Shown here one piece after another: positions 11,129 to 20,954 of a stretch of DNA of 45,117 bases. A program made the position numbers and the translations under genes. The DNA comes from Nitrospinales bacterium (lineage in GTDB: Bacteria; Nitrospinota_A; UBA7883; JACRGQ01): contig JAHFEJ010000005.1 of assembly GCA_023248535.1 (NCBI GenBank), positions 19,456 to 64,572 of the forward strand, in the 5' to 3' direction. Under the pieces are notes generated by a model. The model saw nothing but the letters and a program-made list of their open reading frames with translations. It did not search any database and was not told the DNA's origin. Every line of letters starts with the position of its first letter. Position 1 is the stretch's first letter.

Positions 11129-13273
11129 TTATGCGGCGGCGCCGCGCGGGCCTGTGTAGCGCTTTGCCAGGATGAGCAGTTCCCTTTCGGCGTCCTGCTT
11201 TTGCAGGAAGTGATTGGCTCCCGCCCGAATGAACTTCGCTTTATCCGCCGCGTCGGTCGTGCTTCCCGCGATGATGAGCGGTGTGCGCGCATATTCATCG
11301 GATTCGCGCAGCGCGGTAAGGAAGTTCAGGGTGTTGCCGTTGCCTCCCTCATTGGCAATGATGATGAATTCCGGGGATCCCCCCCTGGCGGTGGCTTTAA
11401 TAAGCGCATAGGGCGTATCGACCTCCACCATTTCCACATCCAGATTCCTGGCGAAAAAGCTTTCAAGGCGGTATTTGAACTGGCTGTCGTCGCACATGAT
11501 GGCGGCGTAGGGGCGGCGGTACGGGAGGGTGATCGTGAATTTGCTTCCATTTCCCGGTATCGATTCCACGGTAATCGTGCCGGCATGTGCGCCGATGATG
11601 TCGGCGACCAAGGGGAGGCCCAGCCCGGTTCCCCGTTCGCCCGCGGTGCCAGCCCGGCTGGTTTTTTCCTCATGCTTGAAGACTTTTCCCAGCAGCGTTT
11701 CCGGAATGCCGATGCCGTTGTCCTTGACGGTGACGACGCCGTTCTTGCCGAATACAGTGCCCACTTCCACCCGTCCTTCGTTCTTTTTGCAGAATTTGAT
11801 GGAGTTGTTGATCAGGTTGTGGAACACCTCTTCCATCAGGTTGGGGTCGGCATAGAACCGCATGCCGGCGGGAACGGCGTTTACCAGGGTGGCCCCTTTT
11901 TCTTCGGCCTGTTGGGCCACCCGTTCGAACACCAGATCGACCGCGCGCCGTACGTCCATAAATTCGCGCTTCACCCCCAGCTTGCCGCTCTTGATGCGGT
12001 TTATGTTCAGGATTTCTTCGGTCATCCGCATCAGGTTTTCAACAATCTGGATAACCCGTGAGATGGTCGAACGGTATGCGGCGGGGGCGGATTCCGTGCC
12101 GCTTCCGGCCCGTTTCAAAAGTGAAAGGATGGTGCTGAAACCGCCGCGCAGGTCGTGTGCGACAAGTGAAAGGAGCTTGTTCTTCGTTTCCGTCGCCTTC
12201 TCGGCTTCGCTTTTTTCAATTTCCAGTTTGCCATGCGCGGCTTTCTGCCAGAGGATGAGGCCGAATACGGCCAATGCCGATAGAAACACCAGCAGATATA
12301 ATCCGGCGCGGAAGACCGCGCGGCCGCGGATCTCATTTACCCCGCCCTTGGATATTTCACCCACCGCACGGGATATTTCCAGCCCGGAATCGATGGCGTC
12401 GGTGGCTTTGGCCAGCCAGACTTCCCCGGAAAGGGAGTATGGCGCGTGCGCCGCCGATGCGGCATATACCGCTTTGCGCGTGTTTTCATAATCCGTTAAG
12501 AAGACCTTTTCAAAATGATCAATGGCCGCCCGAAGCGGCGCGGGGGTTTCCTCCAGAGCGCGCAGCTCCAGTACTTTGGCGGCGGCCTCATCCACAATGA
12601 CCCGGTAGGCTTTGAGCATCTCCCCGGTTTCCGGCGGAATGGGCCGTCCCGCCGCTATCAACCCCCCCAACAGCGCCCGCTCGCGTCCGGCGAATTCGCA
12701 CAGCTTGGCGATATTGGCGCGGATCACGATGTTGTAGTACATGATTTTTTCCCCGGTTTCGTGGGGGGCGAATACCGTATCGCGAAGGCGGAATTCGCTT
12801 TCGATATTGCCGGAAGCAACGGCTACCCATTCCCCGGATTTGATGTTATGCGCGATGATCCTTTTTCGGGCGGTATCAAGTTCCGCCAGACGCTGTTTCC
12901 ATGCGGCCTGCTGGCGCTCCACATCCCTGTCGGGTTCCAACTTCAAATGTTCGCGGAGGTCCTCCATCGCGGCGCTTGTTTCCACATCGCCTTTCCCGCC
13001 GATTTCATTGAACCGCTGGATCATCGCCGAGGTGGGGAAGTCCGTGCCGAGGATGGTGTTGCCGATCCCGCGTTCCAGCGCATGAAGGCTGGCCGCATTG
13101 TTCAGGTGCCCCGCCACCTTGTCCATCAGGCGGTAGTGTTCCGCCCGCCGCATCTCCTTGCGCTCTTCTATCATGAGCACGGCGGCAAGGCCGAGGGCGA
13201 AAAGAAAAACAAGGAACACCAGCCTTTGCATACGGAGAAAAACTTCTCTCGTGAAAACTTCTTTCGCCGGCAT
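11129..13273 (-). CDS. Hybrid sensor histidine kinase with NIT (nitrate/nitrite-sensing) domain and degenerate C-terminal receiver
   Basis: TM, then HALERG and EFAGRERA NIT signatures, then TM; H-box AHDLRG; NLINNSIKF; DNGIG; GTGLGL; receiver-like tail lacks the acceptor Asp; start uncertain (13273 or 13354). Confidence 0.82.
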   Translation of the reverse strand: MPAKEVFTREVFLRMQRLVFLVFLFALGLAAVLMIEERKEMRRAEHYRLMDKVAGHLNNAASLHALERGIGNTILGTDFPTSAMIQRFNEIGGKGDVETSAAMEDLREHLKLEPDRDVERQQAAWKQRLAELDTARKRIIAHNIKSGEWVAVASGNIESEFRLRDTVFAPHETGEKIMYYNIVIRANIAKLCEFAGRERALLGGLIAAGRPIPPETGEMLKAYRVIVDEAAAKVLELRALEETPAPLRAAIDHFEKVFLTDYENTRKAVYAASAAHAPYSLSGEVWLAKATDAIDSGLEISRAVGEISKGGVNEIRGRAVFRAGLYLLVFLSALAVFGLILWQKAAHGKLEIEKSEAEKATETKNKLLSLVAHDLRGGFSTILSLLKRAGSGTESAPAAYRSTISRVIQIVENLMRMTEEILNINRIKSGKLGVKREFMDVRRAVDLVFERVAQQAEEKGATLVNAVPAGMRFYADPNLMEEVFHNLINNSIKFCKKNEGRVEVGTVFGKNGVVTVKDNGIGIPETLLGKVFKHEEKTSRAGTAGERGTGLGLPLVADIIGAHAGTITVESIPGNGSKFTITLPYRRPYAAIMCDDSQFKYRLESFFARNLDVEMVEVDTPYALIKATARGGSPEFIIIANEGGNGNTLNFLTALRESDEYARTPLIIAGSTTDAADKAKFIRAGANHFLQKQDAERELLILAKRYTGPRGAAA

Positions 13274-13481
13274 TTCCGTCCCTATTAATCCGCCGCATTC
13301 ACGGCGCACACCCAATGCCATCTGTGAATAACAGATGGCCAGCCCCCAATTCACCCCACAGGACTATATCACAGCTAACCCTGGGGGGTTATCTGATAAA
13401 ATGCTTTTAGGCCGCTATCCGGTCGACTTGAATATCTTCAGTATTCCAACCCGGATATTTGCGGTACAATCCAAGCGGATT

Positions 13482-14225
13482 ATGGCAAAACTGGGCGTAA
13501 ACGTTGATCATGTGGCCACATTGCGCCAGGCGCGCCGCGCCGCGTATCCCGATCCGGCGGCGGCCGCGAAAATGGCGCTGGAGGAAGGGGTTTCCTGCAT
13601 CACCGTTCACCTCCGCGAAGACCGCCGCCACATCCAGGATGCCGACTTGCTCGCGATCCGCAAACTTCCCGGCTGCCGTCTGAATCTGGAGATGTCCGCC
13701 GCGGAGGATATCATCGCTATCGCCCTCAACCTCCGGCCCGAACAGGTTACCATCGTGCCGGAACGAAGGCAGGAATTGACCACCGAGGGGGGGCTGGACG
13801 TGGCGGCACGCCCGGAGTTTTACCGTGATTTAACCAAGACCTTTTCCTCCGCCGGAATCGCCCTTTCTTTTTTCATCGATCCCGACCAGCGGCAAATCGA
13901 CGCTTGTGCCGCCACCCAGGCGTTGGCCGTGGAGATCAACACCGCCGCCTACAGCGAAGCCGTGAGCGATAAGGATACCGCCAAAACCCTGCGCGAAGTG
14001 CAACGTGCGGCGTATACGGCGCGCAACCTGGGGCTGGCCGTACACGCCGGCCACGGATTGAACTACCGGAATGTCACTTCCATCGCCGCCATTGAAGGGC
14101 TGGAGGAGCTTAACATCGGCCACAGCATCGTGGCGCAGTCGGTGTATGTCGGGTTCCCTTCCGCGGTTGCCAGCATGAAAAGGCTGATCGAAGCCGCCTC
14201 CCAAAAAAAACGGGCCGCGGGGTGA
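13482..14225 (+). CDS. pdxJ: Pyridoxine 5'-phosphate synthase
   Basis: MAKLGVNVDHVATLRQAR, ITVHLREDRRHIQD, TTEGGLD, HAGHGLNY, ELNIGHSI. Confidence 0.97.
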   Translation: MAKLGVNVDHVATLRQARRAAYPDPAAAAKMALEEGVSCITVHLREDRRHIQDADLLAIRKLPGCRLNLEMSAAEDIIAIALNLRPEQVTIVPERRQELTTEGGLDVAARPEFYRDLTKTFSSAGIALSFFIDPDQRQIDACAATQALAVEINTAAYSEAVSDKDTAKTLREVQRAAYTARNLGLAVHAGHGLNYRNVTSIAAIEGLEELNIGHSIVAQSVYVGFPSAVASMKRLIEAASQKKRAAG

Positions 14226-14230
14226 ACTAA

Positions 14231-14524
14231 GTGATCCGCCATATCGTGCTGTTCAAACTGAAAGAGGGGATCTCCGGCGCGGAGGCGAAGGAGCTGGCAA
14301 ACCAACTCGCCGCCCTGCGGCACAATACGGGCGGGTTGATGAAAGAGGCGGAAGTCGCCTTTGACGTTGTTCACGCCCATAATTCCCACGATATTGTGCT
14401 TAACTCCGTTTTTGAAGATACCGAGCGGCTGAAAGAGTACCAAATTCACCCCGAACATGTAAAAGTACTTGATTTGATTAAGAAAATCTGCTTAGCTACT
14501 GTAAAGGCAGATTACGTGATTTAA
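14231..14524 (+). CDS. Dabb / stress-responsive A/B barrel protein
   Basis: MIRHIVLFKLK...F.D...L..YQ.HP.H...DY pattern. Confidence 0.88.
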   Translation: MIRHIVLFKLKEGISGAEAKELANQLAALRHNTGGLMKEAEVAFDVVHAHNSHDIVLNSVFEDTERLKEYQIHPEHVKVLDLIKKICLATVKADYVI

Positions 14525-14639
14525 AGAGGAGTTGGGGAAGGGCTTCCCATCGGAGCCATAATCCCCGGCATATCGTCCGGATAGGGCAGAATGCCCGTGT
14601 ATGCGGCGGTATTCGTTTTGTCTTTAGGGAGGTTGCTAG

Positions 14640-16913
14640 TTGATGGAACAGGAAAAGATAGCCGCGCACGGAAGTGCGCAACTGACGCGGGAAGATATTA
14701 ACCGTTTTGCGGATCTGGTGAAAGAAGCCGACGCGCAGCGCAAGAGCCTCAACCTCCTCGTGGAATACATCCAGAACAACATCGAGAAGGTGAACCTGAA
14801 CGTCACCACGATGAAGAACCTCGAAAGCAAAATTCCCTTTTTCAACGAATTCGCCGAAAAGATGGGGGGGAAATTCGAGGAGCTGCGGAATCTCGAGATC
14901 CGCGTGAAAGACATCTCCGCGGGCGTGGAAGAGGGCGCCGGGCGCCTGCACGAACACCGCATGGCGGTGGACGAGGTTTCGCTGATCGCCGAACACGTGA
15001 AAAGCAAAGTGAAGGCGTTGAACCAGCAGCGGCTGGTGGTGGAAAAAGCCAACGAAGAGGCCGGCAAGCTCAACATTCTGATCTGGGACATGGAAGCCAA
15101 GGTCAAGAAGCTCACCGAAGAGAACAAGCTGGTCAAGCAGACCGAAAAGAACGTCATCCGCCTCGAGGAGATGCTGGACAAGGTCGCCGACCGGATGCAA
15201 GATATCGAAACCTTCAAGGGGTTGCTCAAAACCTCGGACGAGCAGATCGGCCGTTTGCAAGGTATCAGCCGCGAACTTGAGGATAAAATCGGCCGCATCG
15301 CCCGTCAAAAGGAAGAGATCGACGGCTACGGGAAGGACATCGAAAAGATCGGGCAGACCATCGGCCGCCTGCAGGCAAGCAGCGAGGATCTGCTGCGCCA
15401 GAATGCGCTGGTGACCCAGATGAACCGCGATGTGGCCCAACTGATCAAGGACATGAATGCGTTGCGCGTGGAAACCGGCAATATCATGATGAAAGAAGAC
15501 ATGATCAAGCGCATCAGCGGCAAGCTGAAGCAGCTTGAGGAGATGAACAGCGAGCTGGAGGTGAATATCACCCGCGTTCGCGAAGACAAGGACGTGGTGG
15601 CGGCCACCGAGGAGAAGATCAACAAGCTCAATGTGTTCCTTATCGACTCCATCGGCAACAAGATGAAGATACTCAAAGACGACATGGGCGCCGTGGAAAC
15701 CGCCCGCGAAAAAATGGCCCGCTTCCAGCAAGAGGCGGACGACCTCGAACTCAAGCTCCAGCGTTTCCGCGAAGATATCAAGATCAGCGAAGACATCGAG
15801 GTGAAGCTCAAGAAAATGGGGAGCATGCATGAAGTGCTCAACGCCCAGATCAACGACCTTTCCGCGCGCCGCAATATCGTCGACCAGGTGGAGAAAAAGG
15901 TCAATGCCCTCTCATCAACGGTCATTAATCTCGATGTGAAGATGGAAAACCAGCTCCAGCGCAAGGGGCTGGTCGAAAAGCTGGAGAAAAAGCTGGACGG
16001 CCTCGATTACTACATCGAAGACGCCACGCTGAAAGCGGACCGTATCAACAAAAAGGTCGAATTCCTCGAGAACCTCGACAAGAAGGTGGAGGACCTGCGC
16101 GAGATCACCCGCCAGGTGGAAGAAAAGATATTGGACATCACGCGCGAAAAAAGCGTCATCGACGCGCAGGAGCGCCGCCTCCAGATGCTCGGCAGCAAGC
16201 TGGTGGTCATCGAGGAAAACGTATCGGGCAAACTTGAAGAGGTGCGGGAAGGGAACAACCTCCTGCAGGGGATCATCAAGGCCAAGGAAGAGCTTATGCC
16301 GGTGGTTGACAAGGTGGATGGCCAGATAAGCGGGCTTGTGGCGCGCAGCCAGCAGCTCACCGGTTCCGAAGAGCGGCTGACCGGCGCGCAGACCCGGTTG
16401 GACGATCTGGAAAAACGGCTGGCAAATGTCCGCGACGAGGAGGAACTCCTCATCGAAACGGAAAAGCGGCTTAACATGCTGGGCAACATGATGGAAAAAA
16501 CCTCGCGCCAGGCCGACCAGATCGGCAAGGAGGAGGCGCTCATCAAGAAAGTCCAGGAAGACATTCTCGTCCTCACCTCGCAGATAGAAGACCTCCGTTC
16601 GCAGGAACGGAAGATCGCCAAGCATCAGGAATCGTTCGGGGAGATATCGGACAAGATCAGGTCCCTCTCGGCCATTATGAACGAAGCCGAAACCAAGATC
16701 GACGTGCTCAACTCCCGCATGGTGCTTATCAACCGCACCGAGCAGCGGCTCAACGACCTGAACATTCTCGCCGAAGACATCAAGACCAAGCTCAAGGTGC
16801 TTTCCTCCGAGGAAAAGATCATCGATAAGGCCGCCGGCCAAATCACCGAGCTTCGCTTCCTGTTGGGCGAAATCGAAAAAAAGATCAGCGACCAAAAGGC
16901 GGAGCGGGAATAG
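14640..16913 (+). CDS. Long all-coiled-coil protein built of 31-residue repeats (hypothetical)
   Basis: 757 aa, E/K/L/I-rich, only 2 Pro, no TM, signal peptide or Walker motifs; RBS GGGAGG; own terminator. Confidence 0.85.
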   Translation: MMEQEKIAAHGSAQLTREDINRFADLVKEADAQRKSLNLLVEYIQNNIEKVNLNVTTMKNLESKIPFFNEFAEKMGGKFEELRNLEIRVKDISAGVEEGAGRLHEHRMAVDEVSLIAEHVKSKVKALNQQRLVVEKANEEAGKLNILIWDMEAKVKKLTEENKLVKQTEKNVIRLEEMLDKVADRMQDIETFKGLLKTSDEQIGRLQGISRELEDKIGRIARQKEEIDGYGKDIEKIGQTIGRLQASSEDLLRQNALVTQMNRDVAQLIKDMNALRVETGNIMMKEDMIKRISGKLKQLEEMNSELEVNITRVREDKDVVAATEEKINKLNVFLIDSIGNKMKILKDDMGAVETAREKMARFQQEADDLELKLQRFREDIKISEDIEVKLKKMGSMHEVLNAQINDLSARRNIVDQVEKKVNALSSTVINLDVKMENQLQRKGLVEKLEKKLDGLDYYIEDATLKADRINKKVEFLENLDKKVEDLREITRQVEEKILDITREKSVIDAQERRLQMLGSKLVVIEENVSGKLEEVREGNNLLQGIIKAKEELMPVVDKVDGQISGLVARSQQLTGSEERLTGAQTRLDDLEKRLANVRDEEELLIETEKRLNMLGNMMEKTSRQADQIGKEEALIKKVQEDILVLTSQIEDLRSQERKIAKHQESFGEISDKIRSLSAIMNEAETKIDVLNSRMVLINRTEQRLNDLNILAEDIKTKLKVLSSEEKIIDKAAGQITELRFLLGEIEKKISDQKAERE

Positions 16914-16932
16914 TCCCGCTCTTTCCCTTTTT
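16902..16932 (+). terminator. Intrinsic terminator after the coiled-coil gene
   Basis: GAGCGGGA-ATAG-TCCCGCTC hairpin followed by TTTCCCTTTTT. Confidence 0.65.
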
Positions 16933-16961: not shown

Positions 16962-17834
16962 ATGGCGATAGGTGTTATAGGCGGCAGCGGCCTTTACGGC
17001 ATGAAAGAGCTGAAGATAAAAAAAACCAAAAAGCTCAGGACTCCTTTCGGCAACCCCTCGGACGAATACGTTTTCGGCGAGTTGAACGGCAAGGAGCTGA
17101 TCTTTCTTCCCCGCCACGGCCGGGGGCACCGGATTCTCCCCAGCGAACTTAATTTCCGCGCCAACATCTACGGCTTCAAGATGCTGGGGGTGAAAAAAAT
17201 CCTTTCCGTCTCCGCCGTCGGCTCCCTCAAGGAGGAAATCGAGCCGGGCCATATCGTGTTTCCCGATCAGTTTATCGACCGCACGTTCGCGCGCACCAGC
17301 ACTTTTTTCGGCAACGGCGTGGTTGCCCACGTTTCCTTCGCCGATCCCGTGTGCAAGCACCTCATCGGCGTAACCTCCGCGGCGGCCAAGCGCGCCGGGG
17401 CCGTCACCCATGTTGGCGGCACATATGTCAATATGGAGGGGCCGCAGTTCTCGACCCGCGCCGAATCCCGCATGTACCGCTCGTGGGGCGCATCCGTCAT
17501 CGGCATGACCAACCTCAACGAAGCCAAGCTCGCCCGCGAGGCGGAACTCTGCTATGTCACCATTGCCCTCTCCACCGATTACGACTGCTGGTACGAAGGG
17601 CATGAAGAGGTGAGTACCGCCGCCATTCTGGAGATCATCCACAAGAATGTGGAGATGTCGCAAAAGATCATCAAGGAAGCGGTGGCGAAAATTGACGATG
17701 GCGCCGATTGCCCCGCCGGGTGCAACCATATGTTGGCGCACACCATCATGACCGACCCGAAGAAAATCCCGCCGAAGACCAAATTGGCCCTGAAGCCGAT
17801 CATCGGCAAATATTTGAACCCGAAGAAGCAGTAA
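16962..17834 (+). CDS. mtnP: S-methyl-5'-thioadenosine phosphorylase
   Basis: IGVIGGSGLY, FLPRHGRGH, NFRANI, SAVGSL, EGPQFSTRAES, IGMT, EAKLAREAE, STDYDCW. Confidence 0.95.
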   Translation: MAIGVIGGSGLYGMKELKIKKTKKLRTPFGNPSDEYVFGELNGKELIFLPRHGRGHRILPSELNFRANIYGFKMLGVKKILSVSAVGSLKEEIEPGHIVFPDQFIDRTFARTSTFFGNGVVAHVSFADPVCKHLIGVTSAAAKRAGAVTHVGGTYVNMEGPQFSTRAESRMYRSWGASVIGMTNLNEAKLAREAELCYVTIALSTDYDCWYEGHEEVSTAAILEIIHKNVEMSQKIIKEAVAKIDDGADCPAGCNHMLAHTIMTDPKKIPPKTKLALKPIIGKYLNPKKQ

Positions 17835-17843
17835 GGAAGACGC

Positions 17844-19121
17844 ATGAGCCGCTCAAAGGAACTGTTTGAAAAAGCGAAAACCCTGATGCCCGGCGGGGTG
17901 AACAGCCCCGTCCGCGCTTTCAAAAGCGTGGGGCGTGACCCGATTTTCATCAAGCGCGCCAAAGGCAGCGCCATCACCGACGTGGACGGCCGCACGTATA
18001 TTGATTATGTGGGATCGTGGGGGCCTATGATCACCGGCCACGCCGACGAGCGCATTCTGGCCGCCATAGCCAAAGCCGCGGAGGATGGCACCAGTTTCGG
18101 CGCGCCGCACGAGCGCGAAATAGAACTGGCCCAAATGGTTATCGACGCGGTTCCCTCCATCGAGATGTGCCGCATGGTCAGCAGCGGCACCGAGGCGGTG
18201 ATGAGCGCCATCCGCCTGGCCCGCGGTTTCACCGGGCGCGACATGATCCTCAAATTTGAAGGATGCTATCACGGCCACGGCGACAGCATGTTGGTGAAAG
18301 CCGGCAGCGGCGTGGAAACGCTCGGCTTGCCGGACAGTCCCGGCGTGCCGTCCGGGATCGCGAATAACACCCTTACGGCGAAATACAACGACCTGAAGAG
18401 CGTGGAAGAGTTGTTCGCCGCGCAGCCCGGCAAGATCGCCTGCGTGATTTTGGAAGCGGTGGTCGGCAATATGGGCGTGTGGATACCGGAGCCGGGCTTC
18501 TTGCAGGGGCTTCGTGCATTGTGCGACAAGCATGGCGCATTGCTCATATTCGACGAGGTTATCACCGGCTTCCGTTTGGCCTACGGCGGCGCACAGCAGT
18601 ACTACGGCGTGAAGCCCGATCTCACCACGCTGGGCAAGATCATCGGCGGCGGCCTGCCCGTCGGCTGCTTTGGCGGGCGCAAGGATATTATGAAGATGAT
18701 GGCCCCCGAAGGGCCGGTTTACCAGGCCGGAACGCTGAGCGGCAATCCGCTGGCGATGGCCGCGGGGATCGCCACGCTTAATATCCTGAAAACGCCCGGC
18801 GTGTACGATCAGCTTGAACAGAAGAGCAGAAAACTGGCCGATGGCCTTGCGGCCGCCGCCCAAAAAGCCGGGCACAAGACCACCAGCAACCGGGTTGGGG
18901 CGATGTTCTCGCTTTTCTTTACTGATAAGAAGGTGTTCGATTATCCTTCATCAAAAACTTCAGACACGAAGAAGTTCGCCAAATACTTTGGGCTGATGCT
19001 TGAGAATGGCGTTTATCTGGCGCCTTCGCAGTTTGAAGCGGGATTCATGTCGTTGGCCCACAGCGAGGCCGATATCGCCAAGACCATCGCCGCCGCCGAG
19101 TCCGCTTTCAGCCAGCTCTGA
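17844..19121 (+). CDS. hemL: Glutamate-1-semialdehyde 2,1-aminomutase
   Basis: [50 protein letters not shown] (PLP Lys), [17 protein letters not shown]. Confidence 0.97.
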
Positions 19122-19244
19122 TACCCGTTTTCTCAACCCGCCCTCAAGGAGCATACGGCGGGTTGCATGGTAGAATGCCCGGCACAGGCATATCCAGGCT
19201 TCCGGGCGCAGTGGTTCCATGCCGGTGATGGAAAAGGGGTGACG

Positions 19245-20954
19245 ATGAAAATGGGCGAAGGCAGGCGTCTGTTCATCCTTATCAGCATTTTGTTGGTGGC
19301 GGGGTTCCTTGCAACCAGCCTTGCCAGCTATTTGATATCCAAGGCGGGGGTGCGCGAGGCAATCATCGCCCGCGAACTGCCGATCACCAGCGACAACATC
19401 TATTCGGAAATCCAGCGCGATCTTTTGCGCCCGATCTCAATTTCCTCATTCATGGCCAACGATACGTTTTTGCGCGATTGGACGTTGCGCGGCGAGCGCG
19501 AAACCGGCGAAGTGACGAGGTATCTCAAGGAAGTATCGAACAGGTATGGCGCGCTCACCTCGTTCTTCGTATCGGAAAAGACGGGCGTTTACTACCATGG
19601 GAACGGCATCCTGAAAAAAGTGCGGGAGGATGAACCGCGCGACATATGGTATTACCGTGTGCGGAACATGGCCCCGGATTATGAGATCAACGTCGATCTG
19701 GATATGGCGAACCGCGACACCATGACTATTTTCATCAACCACCGCGTGTTCGATTACAGCGGCCATTTCATCGGCGCCACCGGCGTCGGACTGGCGGTCG
19801 ATTCGGCGCGTCAGGTTATTGAAAATTATCAGAGGCGCTACGGCCGGAACATCTATTTTGTGGATCGCTCCGGGAAGGTGGTGCTGAAGGGGCGCGGCAG
19901 CACCGATTCGTACCGCACCATTCTTGAAAGGCCGGGCCTCAAGACAATCGCCCCCGCCATTCTTTCATCGGAGCAGGGGTCGTTTGAATATCGGCATCAG
20001 GGGAAGACGTTGCTGGTAAACGCCCGTTTCATAAAAGAGCTGCAATGGTATCTGATGGTTGAGCAGGATGTGGATCCCTCGCTCGCCAGTTTACGGAGAA
20101 CGCTATACGGCAATCTGGCGGTCTGCTTCGTTATCACTTTAATAGTTCTGACCGCTACCCGTTTCACTGTGGGCCGCTACCAGCGGCGCGTGGAAGAGCG
20201 CACCGAAGAGCTGCGGGTGGCGAAGGAACTGGCGGAAGACGCCACGCGCCTCAAGGACCGGTTTGTGGCGCTGGTCTCGCATAACCTCCGGGAACCGCTG
20301 GCGACGATCAAGGGGTATATCCAGCTTTCCCGCCAGGCGAATGACGGCGGCGAGGGCAATAAAACCGATTTTGGCGGTTGGCTGTCCACCTCGGAAAAGA
20401 TCGCCGATGATTTAATGGAGAGTGTTGGGAAGATACTTGATACAAGCCGGTTGCAGGCCGGCCAAATCAGTCTCAACAAAAGCCGCATTAACGTTCATGA
20501 CTTTGCGCAACGGTGGATGGACAAAGTATCCATCGCGGCGGCGCAAAAAGGGATCACGATACATAACGAAATCCCCCAAACATCCACGTTAACGGGTGAT
20601 GCCGACCTGCTTGGCGAAGTATTATTGAACCTTCTCACCAACGCCATCAAGTTCACCCGGCAGGGGGGAACCGTTACCCTTTCATCGCCCGCTCCCCATA
20701 TCCTAACCGTCAGGGATTCGGGCATCGGTGTCCACGAAGCCGTATTGCCCGATATCTTCAAGTATGAAGTGATGACCAGCACCAAAGGGACGGCCGGGGA
20801 ACGGGGAACCGGTTTTGGCCTGCCCTACTGCCAGGACATAATGAAAATCCACGGCGGCGTTTTACGGGTTGAAACATCCCCCTCGGGATCCGTTTTTTTC
20901 ATGGAATTTCCGCAAGAAAAGGCTTCCCCGCCTTCGGCCCCCTCAAACGGCTGA
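19245..20954 (+). CDS. Sensor histidine kinase with extracytoplasmic dCache-like domain
   Basis: TM, Cache-like region (D.WYY, IFINHRV, IGATGVGL), TM; H-box SHNLREP; NLLTNAIKF; DSGIG; GTGFGL; extended -10 TGGTAGAAT at 19168-19176. Confidence 0.9.
   Translation: MKMGEGRRLFILISILLVAGFLATSLASYLISKAGVREAIIARELPITSDNIYSEIQRDLLRPISISSFMANDTFLRDWTLRGERETGEVTRYLKEVSNRYGALTSFFVSEKTGVYYHGNGILKKVREDEPRDIWYYRVRNMAPDYEINVDLDMANRDTMTIFINHRVFDYSGHFIGATGVGLAVDSARQVIENYQRRYGRNIYFVDRSGKVVLKGRGSTDSYRTILERPGLKTIAPAILSSEQGSFEYRHQGKTLLVNARFIKELQWYLMVEQDVDPSLASLRRTLYGNLAVCFVITLIVLTATRFTVGRYQRRVEERTEELRVAKELAEDATRLKDRFVALVSHNLREPLATIKGYIQLSRQANDGGEGNKTDFGGWLSTSEKIADDLMESVGKILDTSRLQAGQISLNKSRINVHDFAQRWMDKVSIAAAQKGITIHNEIPQTSTLTGDADLLGEVLLNLLTNAIKFTRQGGTVTLSSPAPHILTVRDSGIGVHEAVLPDIFKYEVMTSTKGTAGERGTGFGLPYCQDIMKIHGGVLRVETSPSGSVFFMEFPQEKASPPSAPSNG

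Follow-up and report, generated by a model that had tools for sequence, protein, structure and literature searches.

Tandem 31-residue coiled-coil repeats in a protein of Nitrospinota

What is encoded by an open reading frame (ORF) whose product seems to be one long series of helical repeats? This question is raised by contig JAHFEJ010000005.1 of a Nitrospinales bacterium from groundwater (assembly GCA_023248535.1; 2.87 Mb in 132 contigs, 98% complete), of which a stretch of 45,117 nucleotides, called the window below, was analysed. In this window, an ORF at 14640-16913 on the forward strand encloses the gene of a coiled-coil protein. An initial annotation, made from the sequence alone, had described the product as a rod of 20 tandem 31-residue units and as a candidate for a novel filament, scaffold or ruler. 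The tandem-repeat observation is confirmed here, and the array extends further than was first described.

The 31-residue repeat array

Is the periodicity real? In a BLOSUM62 autocorrelation of the whole protein, a lag of 31 residues scored highest (0.32), followed by the lags 62 and 93, and the best lag outside the multiples of 31 scored 0.027. None of 1000 full shuffles raised any lag above -0.283. In 1000 further shuffles that kept the hydrophobic/polar pattern, the mean score at lag 31 was 0.063 and the maximum 0.240. Since no such shuffle attained the observed score, the units are alike beyond their hydrophobic pattern. The Fourier spectrum of hydrophobicity for residues 131-756 peaked at a period of 3.46 with a power of 11.4, while the 99th percentile of the shuffle maxima was 2.1. 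With the family-mean profile, the peak lay at 3.455 (power 17.5). The canonical heptad period of 3.5 was not found in either spectrum (power 0.37 for the single protein and 0.06 for the family mean, versus 11-17.5 at 3.455-3.46). A signal at a period of 31 or 3.44 had been named beforehand as a check on the initial annotation; the autocorrelation shows the former, and the Fourier peak lies close to the latter.

How are the units arranged? Dynamic programming on the family hydrophobicity profile parsed almost the entire protein into 24 tandem units (Table 1). The steps from unit to unit are 31 residues in 20 cases, 32 in one (unit 11) and 35 in two (units 3 and 17). From residue 130 onward, the parse reproduced the 20 units that had been counted from residue 131 in the initial annotation (18 of 31 residues, one of 32 and one of 35), but the first 130 residues, which had been overlooked, turned out to be four more units. 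The core positions are those originally proposed: positions 4, 7, 11, 14, 18, 21, 25 and 28 of the unit are occupied by L, I, V, M or F in 55-87% of cases. A polar residue occupies position 1, where the 'a' residue of the stammer is expected, and the core resumes at position 4. For this reason, the spacing is of the 3-3 stammer type (31/9): each unit has four a/d heptads and then the 3-3 spacing, and 20 of the 23 steps are exactly 31. The mean period is 3.455 instead of 31/9 = 3.444 because of the few extra residues in the longer units. An internal duplication of higher order was also considered: on the family profile, a lag of 439 scores 0.234, but this lag corresponds to 14 units plus 5 inserted residues, and only 317 positions stand behind the score.

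Does the protein contain anything besides the repeat? It is rich in E, L, K and I, and has no cysteine, a single tryptophan and two prolines. No Pfam family matched the window protein above its cut-off, and no ATPase, head or hinge domain was found in it. The highest Kyte-Doolittle average over 19 residues is 0.63; thus, there is no transmembrane (TM) segment. On the absence of an ATPase head, a hinge and a TM segment, the initial annotation was borne out. Two monomer models of moderate confidence were obtained with AlphaFold2. With an alignment of 25 rows, the predicted local-distance difference test (pLDDT) score was 64.9 and the predicted template-modelling (pTM) score 0.19, and helices were placed at residues 16-276, 281-451, 456-661 and 666-755. 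With 95 rows, the scores were 69.1 and 0.26, and the helices lay at 16-61, 80-276, 287-407, 423-568 and 587-755. In both models, continuous helices of 90-261 residues run across many units without a break at the unit boundaries. Spectrin-like bundles, the contrary outcome foreseen in the initial annotation, were not seen at these confidence levels (pLDDT 65-69), and a bundle for each repeat is unsupported because the helices pass unbroken from unit to unit. Pfam, the TM scan, the Fourier analysis and AlphaFold2 thus agree on an all-helical cytoplasmic protein with a non-heptad period.

Where does the gene begin and end? The start codon is likely ATG 14643, which would give a product of 756 residues. 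This is because the TTG one codon upstream is absent from the close relatives, all of which begin at an ATG behind an AGGAGG-type site. As had been claimed, the gene has a ribosome-binding site and a terminator of its own, the latter a terminator-like hairpin followed by a run of T with a folding energy of -21.5 kcal/mol (z = -5.1), and it stands alone between these two signals. Two antisense ORFs of 444 and 326 residues, 14496-15830 and 15915-16895 on the minus strand, lie inside the gene, and their translations even give BLAST matches in the loci of relatives. They are taken as shadow ORFs of a purine-rich, periodic sense strand (AT skew 0.22-0.25) and not as genes.

Is the gene highly expressed? 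The codon adaptation index (CAI) was calculated with fusA, rpsG and rpsA as the reference and compared with 1823 non-overlapping ORFs of at least 200 residues. Here fusA was placed by its GTP_EFTU match, and rpsG is the adjacent ORF, taken as such from its position and size. The CAI of the coiled-coil gene is 0.70, the 99th percentile of the genome (median 0.49, 95th percentile 0.64); this percentile is somewhat inflated by spurious ORFs in the set, but the value itself lies among those of the reference genes (rpsA 0.74, fusA 0.73). The resemblance to rpsA in codon usage, pointed out from the outset, therefore holds, and the gene is probably highly expressed, as far as codon choice can tell.

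Orthologues, relatives and neighbouring genes

Is the protein common in Nitrospinota? A family profile search found a single-copy orthologue in 26 of the 33 Nitrospinota genomes (23 of 26 genera, 17 of 22 high-quality genomes). One of 25 orthologue loci ends at a contig edge and another departs from the family after about residue 706. The remaining 23 orthologues are complete and measure 754-767 residues. The alignment of 25 sequences (A1 below), which reaches down to 32% identity and includes distant members at 32-39%, is essentially free of indels from about residue 20 to 750; within this range, only one member has gaps, one of three residues and one of a single residue. Four segments are conserved (Table 1). 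The block at residues 117-162 is recognisable even in Fibrobacterota and in relatives of about 825 and 900 residues, and the D-G pair of the block at 429-460 is retained in the branch of about 900 residues. The departing orthologue (L030:103-2439, minus strand) is 779 residues long and loses the family similarity wholly after about residue 706. A frameshift, a chimeric assembly or a genuine replacement of the C-terminus could explain this.

Is the family found outside the phylum? When 1.84 billion cluster representatives were searched with a profile, 1487 matched at E<=1e-3, of which 345 reached E<=1e-10 and 76 reached E<=1e-30; the weakest of the 1487 are perhaps just generic coiled coils. 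Among the best 150 of these matches, many are 896-917, 873-892 or 825 residues long and collinear with the query over 650-700 of its residues. Each of 139 related proteins of 400 residues or more has its hydrophobic peak at 3.43-3.475, and in 103 of them no lag scores higher than 31; the set takes in close kin and cluster-mates of the query, so that its members are not independent. In a 10-sequence alignment of the branch of about 900 residues, 29 units were parsed; 21 of the steps are 31 residues long, five are 28, and there is one each of 35 and 27 residues. From the collinear offset, the 35-residue unit 22 of that branch looks like the counterpart of unit 17 here. A superfamily alignment of 187 sequences has more than 20% gaps in just 15 of 756 reference columns. 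In an alignment of 95 sequences (A4), both termini align, and the surplus of the longer branches sits in the N-terminal third.

What are these relatives called? One member of 865 residues is a 'hypothetical protein' in a metagenome-assembled genome (MAG) of Fibrobacterota. The nearest clusters of a protein atlas, found by language-model features, most commonly carry the labels Nitrospinota, Acidobacteriota, Pseudomonadota, Gemmatimonadota and Ca. Eiseniibacteriota, labels that rest on few members and serve as a lead only. Source names of relatives are 'hypothetical protein', 'chromosome segregation ATPase' and 'SbcCD ATPase subunit' (automatic names of JGI). Names of the ATPase type are borne by P0004, P0006, P0016, P0018, P0019, P0022, P0024, P0027, P0046, P0091 and others. 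No ATPase head was matched in the relatives scanned (P0018, P0046, P0091 and others) or in the window protein. Labels of this kind ('chromosome segregation ATPase', 'DNA repair exonuclease SbcCD ATPase subunit') are therefore probably artefacts of coiled-coil similarity. A relative of 1163 residues (P0042, from a MAG labelled 'bacterium') has an N-terminal PD40/TolB-like beta-propeller before about 400 residues of the repeat array; thus, the repeat module is also found fused to another domain.

Is the protein novel, as had been supposed? It has no characterised relative, no Pfam family and no PDB relative, and to that extent the claim stands. On the other hand, it is no isolated oddity, since it belongs to a large family over several phyla and has a marginal match to the SpiroCoCo models. 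The literature search located no publication on the name SpiroCoCo, on 31-residue coiled repeats or on such a Nitrospina protein, and none of the titles listed for coiled-coil-rich proteins concerned this family. The family exists and is widespread, and as far as these searches show no publication has described it; for what may be its spirochaete relatives, there is a name in NCBIfam.

The features of the locus are collected in Table 1. Two histidine kinase genes were seen on either side of it. The one at 11129-13354 on the minus strand encodes 741 residues with a HATPase_c domain and a NIT nitrate/nitrite-sensing domain (32 bits, cut-off 24.9), and may merit attention in a member of a phylum with known nitrite oxidisers. 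The second kinase, at 19167-20954, has Cache and HisKA domains. Scans of the window (1-45117) gave neither a tRNA gene nor an Rfam match that reached the gathering score.

Table 1. Features of the coiled-coil locus, in window coordinates
Feature	Position	Strand	Basis or remark
PdxJ gene, upstream	13335-14225		domain match
Dabb-domain gene, upstream	14231-14524		domain match
Shine-Dalgarno-like site AGGGAGG, 10 nt 5' of the ATG	14626..14632	+	sequence; AGGAGG-type equivalents at the same place in orthologues
Coding sequence, 756 residues + stop (likely start)	14643..16913	+	86.7 kDa, pI 5.4, net charge -18
Repeat array, residues 2-756 (24 units in tandem, each about 31 residues)	14646..16910	+	autocorrelation, Fourier, parse
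Conserved N-terminal segment, residues 28-46	14724..14780	+	A29, Y42 and N46 invariant (Nitrospinota alignment); N-termini of 825-910-residue relatives align here
Unit 3, 35 residues (64-98), five heptads, without stammer	14832..14936	+	Pro65 and a Gly-Gly pair; helix broken here in one of two AlphaFold2 models
Most conserved block, residues 117-162	14991..15128	+	invariant G141 and W148-D149-M150-E151
Unit 11, 32 residues (316-347), one extra residue	15588..15683	+	residue 332 in a column gapped in >20% of 187 relatives
Second conserved block, residues 429-460	15927..16022	+	14 invariant residues within L430-K450; G453 nearly invariant
Unit 17, 35 residues (503-537), five heptads	16149..16253	+	parse
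Conserved C-terminal segment, residues 700-745	16740..16877	+	E700, R702, L706, L740 and L741 invariant; C-termini of distant relatives align here
Intrinsic-terminator-like hairpin (16901-16922) and T-rich tail	16901..16932	+	9 pairs, 6 of them G-C; stop codon in the loop
PNP_UDP_1-family phosphorylase gene, downstream	16962-17834		taken as MTAP
Aminotransferase class-III gene, downstream	17844-19121		taken as hemL
rpsA, ORF of 557 residues	26621-28294	+	six S1-domain matches

A scaffold rod or a folded-back bundle?

What may such a protein do? Because amphipathic repeats run from end to end, length and register are strictly conserved and the codon usage is of the highly expressed type, it was taken to be a structural element that is constrained over its whole length. 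I put at about even chances that it is an abundant cytoplasmic alpha-helical rod, a homo-oligomeric coiled coil that works as a structural scaffold or as a filament whose length is fixed. Of the initial interpretation, the helical, non-heptad and probably abundant rod is upheld, and the filament, scaffold or ruler would be a candidate role for it. In a canonical unit, four heptads and a three-residue stammer would spread 31 residues over 9 turns, giving a hydrophobic seam with a period of about 3.45 and a tighter left-handed winding than in a heptad coiled coil. Starting from an undistorted helix of 3.63 residues per turn, my own arithmetic gives an estimated supercoil pitch near 100-107 Å, versus about 146 Å for heptads. 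Via the seam, chains might join as homo-oligomers, in the simplest case with two strands, and the rod could reach about 110 nm (about 740 residues x 0.148 nm). The fixed length of the orthologues, nearly without indels, fits with a length-constrained rod. The four conserved blocks (the N-terminal end, 117-162, 429-460 and the C-terminal end) would be candidate sites of contact between rods or with a partner. Is such winding allowed? According to excerpts of one paper, a stammer lowers the periodicity and raises the left-handedness, the lower limit is taken as 3.33, and most known non-heptad coiled coils lie above 3.5 (PMC4786415). On the strength of these excerpts, a long-range period of 3.45 would thus be unusual but allowed.

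A bolder version is possible, if doubtful: that these proteins are an undescribed, ancient cytoskeletal or scaffold family, whose regular, overwound 31/9 rod of clade-fixed length would assemble, by way of the conserved blocks at its ends and in its interior, into abundant filaments or into a spacer with a defined length. The range of the family is Nitrospinota and Fibrobacterota and, by the atlas labels, Acidobacteriota, Gemmatimonadota, Pseudomonadota and Eiseniibacteriota; the SpiroCoCo proteins of spirochaetes may be relatives. Coiled-coil rods underlie several bacterial cytoskeletal systems. If the bolder version is true, the 31/9 supercoil geometry (about 3.45) would be one that is so far undocumented as a long-range design. 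A rod with a stammer in every 31 residues along some 750-900 residues, nearly free of indels from one phylum to another, would make a test case for strongly overwound coiled coils, and would also bear on why the length of a rod stays constant. The protein is probably abundant, single-copy and uncharacterised in poorly studied phyla, including marine nitrite oxidisers. Once its function is known, a new element of cell organisation might come to light, and misleading automatic names would at least be put right.

Several results weigh against a self-assembling rod. No evidence of self-association was obtained. A homodimer prediction with two copies of residues 161-440 (alignment A1), run without controls, returned a score of 0.00 and 'no answer' and counts neither for nor against binding. 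The pTM scores are low in both monomer models (0.19 and 0.26), the helix is interrupted at 3-4 places, one of the breaks (residues 277-286) is common to both models, and no confident tertiary arrangement emerged. There is no significant long-range charge periodicity, the feature that drives the staggered packing of myosin rods; the best power was 3.1, below the shuffle 99th percentile of 3.7. The profile search did not find the gene in 7 of the 33 Nitrospinota genomes, namely all three of one genus, a 99%-complete genome of 1.7 Mb and three others. The gene is therefore dispensable in some lineages. Moreover, as detailed further below, the neighbours are housekeeping genes that differ between clades, and this context lends no support to a cytoskeletal role.

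Might the chain instead fold back on itself? This is the main rival: at a few conserved Gly/Pro hinges, the chain would turn to form an intramolecular antiparallel bundle, a rod of about 25-55 nm resembling an arm of SMC or a multi-segment hairpin. The conservation of length would then mean that the arms have to match, and not that the protein is a ruler. The strict avoidance of indels is what matched antiparallel arms require. Both monomer models consist of 4-5 long helical segments with the recurrent break at 277-286, and in the first model low pLDDT or breaks fall on Gly/Pro spots, including the blocks around G141 and G453. The flanking positions 3 and 17 of the unit are partly hydrophobic (50-55%), and this widens the seam, as is seen where a bundle has more than two helices. 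However, the other break sites differ between the two models, whose pTM of 0.19-0.26 means that no defined fold is predicted. Monomer predictions also tend to bury an exposed seam by folding the chain back, whatever the true state, and this general bias takes weight from the segmented models. Covariation did not help: in a mean-field direct coupling analysis of 170 sequences (about 115 effective), the top pairs were artefacts of alignment shifts, and a single broad anti-diagonal peak, centred at about residue 521 beside the 35-residue unit and a region of alignment shift, was judged uninformative. I consider the folded-back bundle rather unlikely.

Does the gene context point to another role? 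In eight loci of the same GTDB family, the PNP_UDP_1 and aminotransferase class-III genes adjoin the coiled-coil gene. In other families of Nitrospinota, the downstream gene in 9 of 13 loci is Nnr (NAD(P)H-hydrate repair; YjeF_N and Carb_kinase), and in 4 of these 13 distant loci a protein of 1175-1275 residues without a Pfam match was seen near the coiled-coil gene (L020:72-3599 (+), L029:449-4276 (+)). No firm functional clue can be drawn from the context, because no neighbour is common to all clades. Two weaker rivals draw in part on particular neighbours. The protein might be associated with the nucleoid or DNA, as Scc of Leptospira or as an accessory of chromosome organisation, and not be cytoskeletal. 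An HU-family gene lies divergently upstream in 6 of the 13 distant loci, and among 80 metagenomic loci of the branch of about 900 residues, a gene of the Mg-chelatase family resembling ComM/YifB was found in 37, mostly divergent upstream; of these 80 loci, the sequence extends beyond 1.5 kb upstream in 39 and downstream in 32, and one example of each neighbour cluster was annotated. The score of 75.5 bits on the spirochaete LA_3659 and SpiroCoCo_N models was counted on the same side. Scc of Leptospira interrogans, according to an excerpt of one paper, forms filaments and binds DNA (PMC2680258), and would be a precedent. But the identity of LA_3659 with Scc could not be established. With its pI of 5.4 and net charge of -18, the window protein is acidic, no DNA-binding domain was recognised in it, the neighbours vary across clades, and the models of SMC, Rad50 and SbcC score far below their cut-offs and match coiled-coil parts only. 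A role on DNA thus seems improbable.

The same branch of about 900 residues is the source of the other weak rival, a tether or spacer beneath the inner membrane, tied to the growth of lipid or cell wall. Of the 80 loci, 23 have a CDP-alcohol phosphatidyltransferase gene, which in 22 cases is the next gene upstream and shares the strand of the coiled-coil gene, and a gene for a lytic transglycosylase with SLT and LysM domains is convergent downstream, also in 23. In Nitrospinota, these neighbours are absent and PdxJ, Dabb, PNP_UDP_1 and aminotransferase class-III genes or Nnr are found instead. The protein has no TM segment, and no membrane-targeting helix was seen, although no formal test for one was made. 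An envelope role appears just as improbable as one on DNA, and the scaffold rod remains the reading that I prefer.

Comparison with known coiled-coil proteins

Which known families does the window protein resemble? The arms of SMC, Rad50 and SbcC are helical regions of similar size. As a member of these families the protein was rejected: the NCBIfam models give 17-47 bits versus cut-offs of 567-1087, the weak matches (26-47 bits) are to the coiled-coil parts only and fall 500-1000 bits short of the cut-offs, and the head, the hinge and the zinc hook are unmatched. Spectrin-type repeats are also tandem helical repeats in a long protein. The spectrin repeat has about 106 residues, while the unit here has 31, no Pfam match was obtained, and single helices span many units; this candidate was likewise rejected. 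PADLOC gave weak, partial coiled-coil matches (DruC 42 bits, LmuB 30 bits), and no defence gene was seen in the annotated neighbourhood of the coiled-coil gene. Sequence and profile searches of PDB returned generic coiled coils only (E>=8e-6), and Foldseek against PDB returned nothing at E<=0.001 for either AlphaFold2 model.

Is it a SpiroCoCo protein? The whole-protein cut-offs are passed on both SpiroCoCo domain models by a thin margin: NF047515 (the C-domain) gave 130.7 bits (cut-off 125) and NF047514 (the N-domain) 75.5 bits (cut-off 75). The LA_3659 family model, NF047516, also gave 75.5 bits (cut-off 36). The SpiroCoCo totals are sums over overlapping repeat matches, in six stretches for the C model and seven for the N model. 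The best single stretch in the genome search reached 51.9 bits, and the model region 5-170 fits three overlapping parts of the protein. A single collinear match for each model was not found; the best stretch of the N model lies at residues 149-254, away from the N-terminus. On the C model, each of the 20 distant relatives that were scanned reaches 90-153 bits, with a matched position that slides along the protein. Among the best 150 of the 1487 profile matches, none has a spirochaete or SpiroCoCo name, and a word-based homologue search with residues 105-170 gave no match. In their repeat units, the window protein and the SpiroCoCo proteins would be homologous or at any rate alike, which is no proof of orthology with the spirochaete proteins. 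SpiroCoCo proteins are likewise long coiled-coil proteins without a published function, but the host here is a member of Nitrospinota and not a spirochaete.

The rods of myosin and paramyosin, with a 28-residue repeat and skip residues, and tropomyosin are built on a long-period repeat over heptads with few conserved discontinuities, and form two-stranded rods of defined length. The window protein recalls them in its long-period repeat over heptads and its few conserved discontinuities. Its unit differs from that of myosin and paramyosin in having 31 residues and not 28, and it lacks a significant charge periodicity. The Tropomyosin family of Pfam matched one relative only, with 31 bits versus a cut-off of 38.6.

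Crescentin, FilP and Scy are the bacterial counterparts to be considered. Scy and FilP reportedly have an unusual long-period repeat of 51 residues. In these proteins the period exceeds 3.5 (stutters or hendecads), while it is below 3.5 (stammers) in the window protein. There is also no division into head, rod and tail as in crescentin and intermediate filaments, since the repeats run from residue 2 to the C-terminus. The Pfam family Rod_CreS did not match the window protein and gave 23 bits (cut-off 100) with one relative of about 900 residues. The rods of intermediate filaments have conserved motifs at both ends, which the conserved ends of the coiled-coil family described here may resemble. 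Some bacterial coiled-coil-rich rod proteins without enzymatic domains form filaments, according to an excerpt of a paper on them (PMC2680258). The window protein is, like crescentin, FilP and Scy, a long and probably rod-shaped protein without an enzymatic domain, and belongs among the bacterial coiled-coil-rich proteins.

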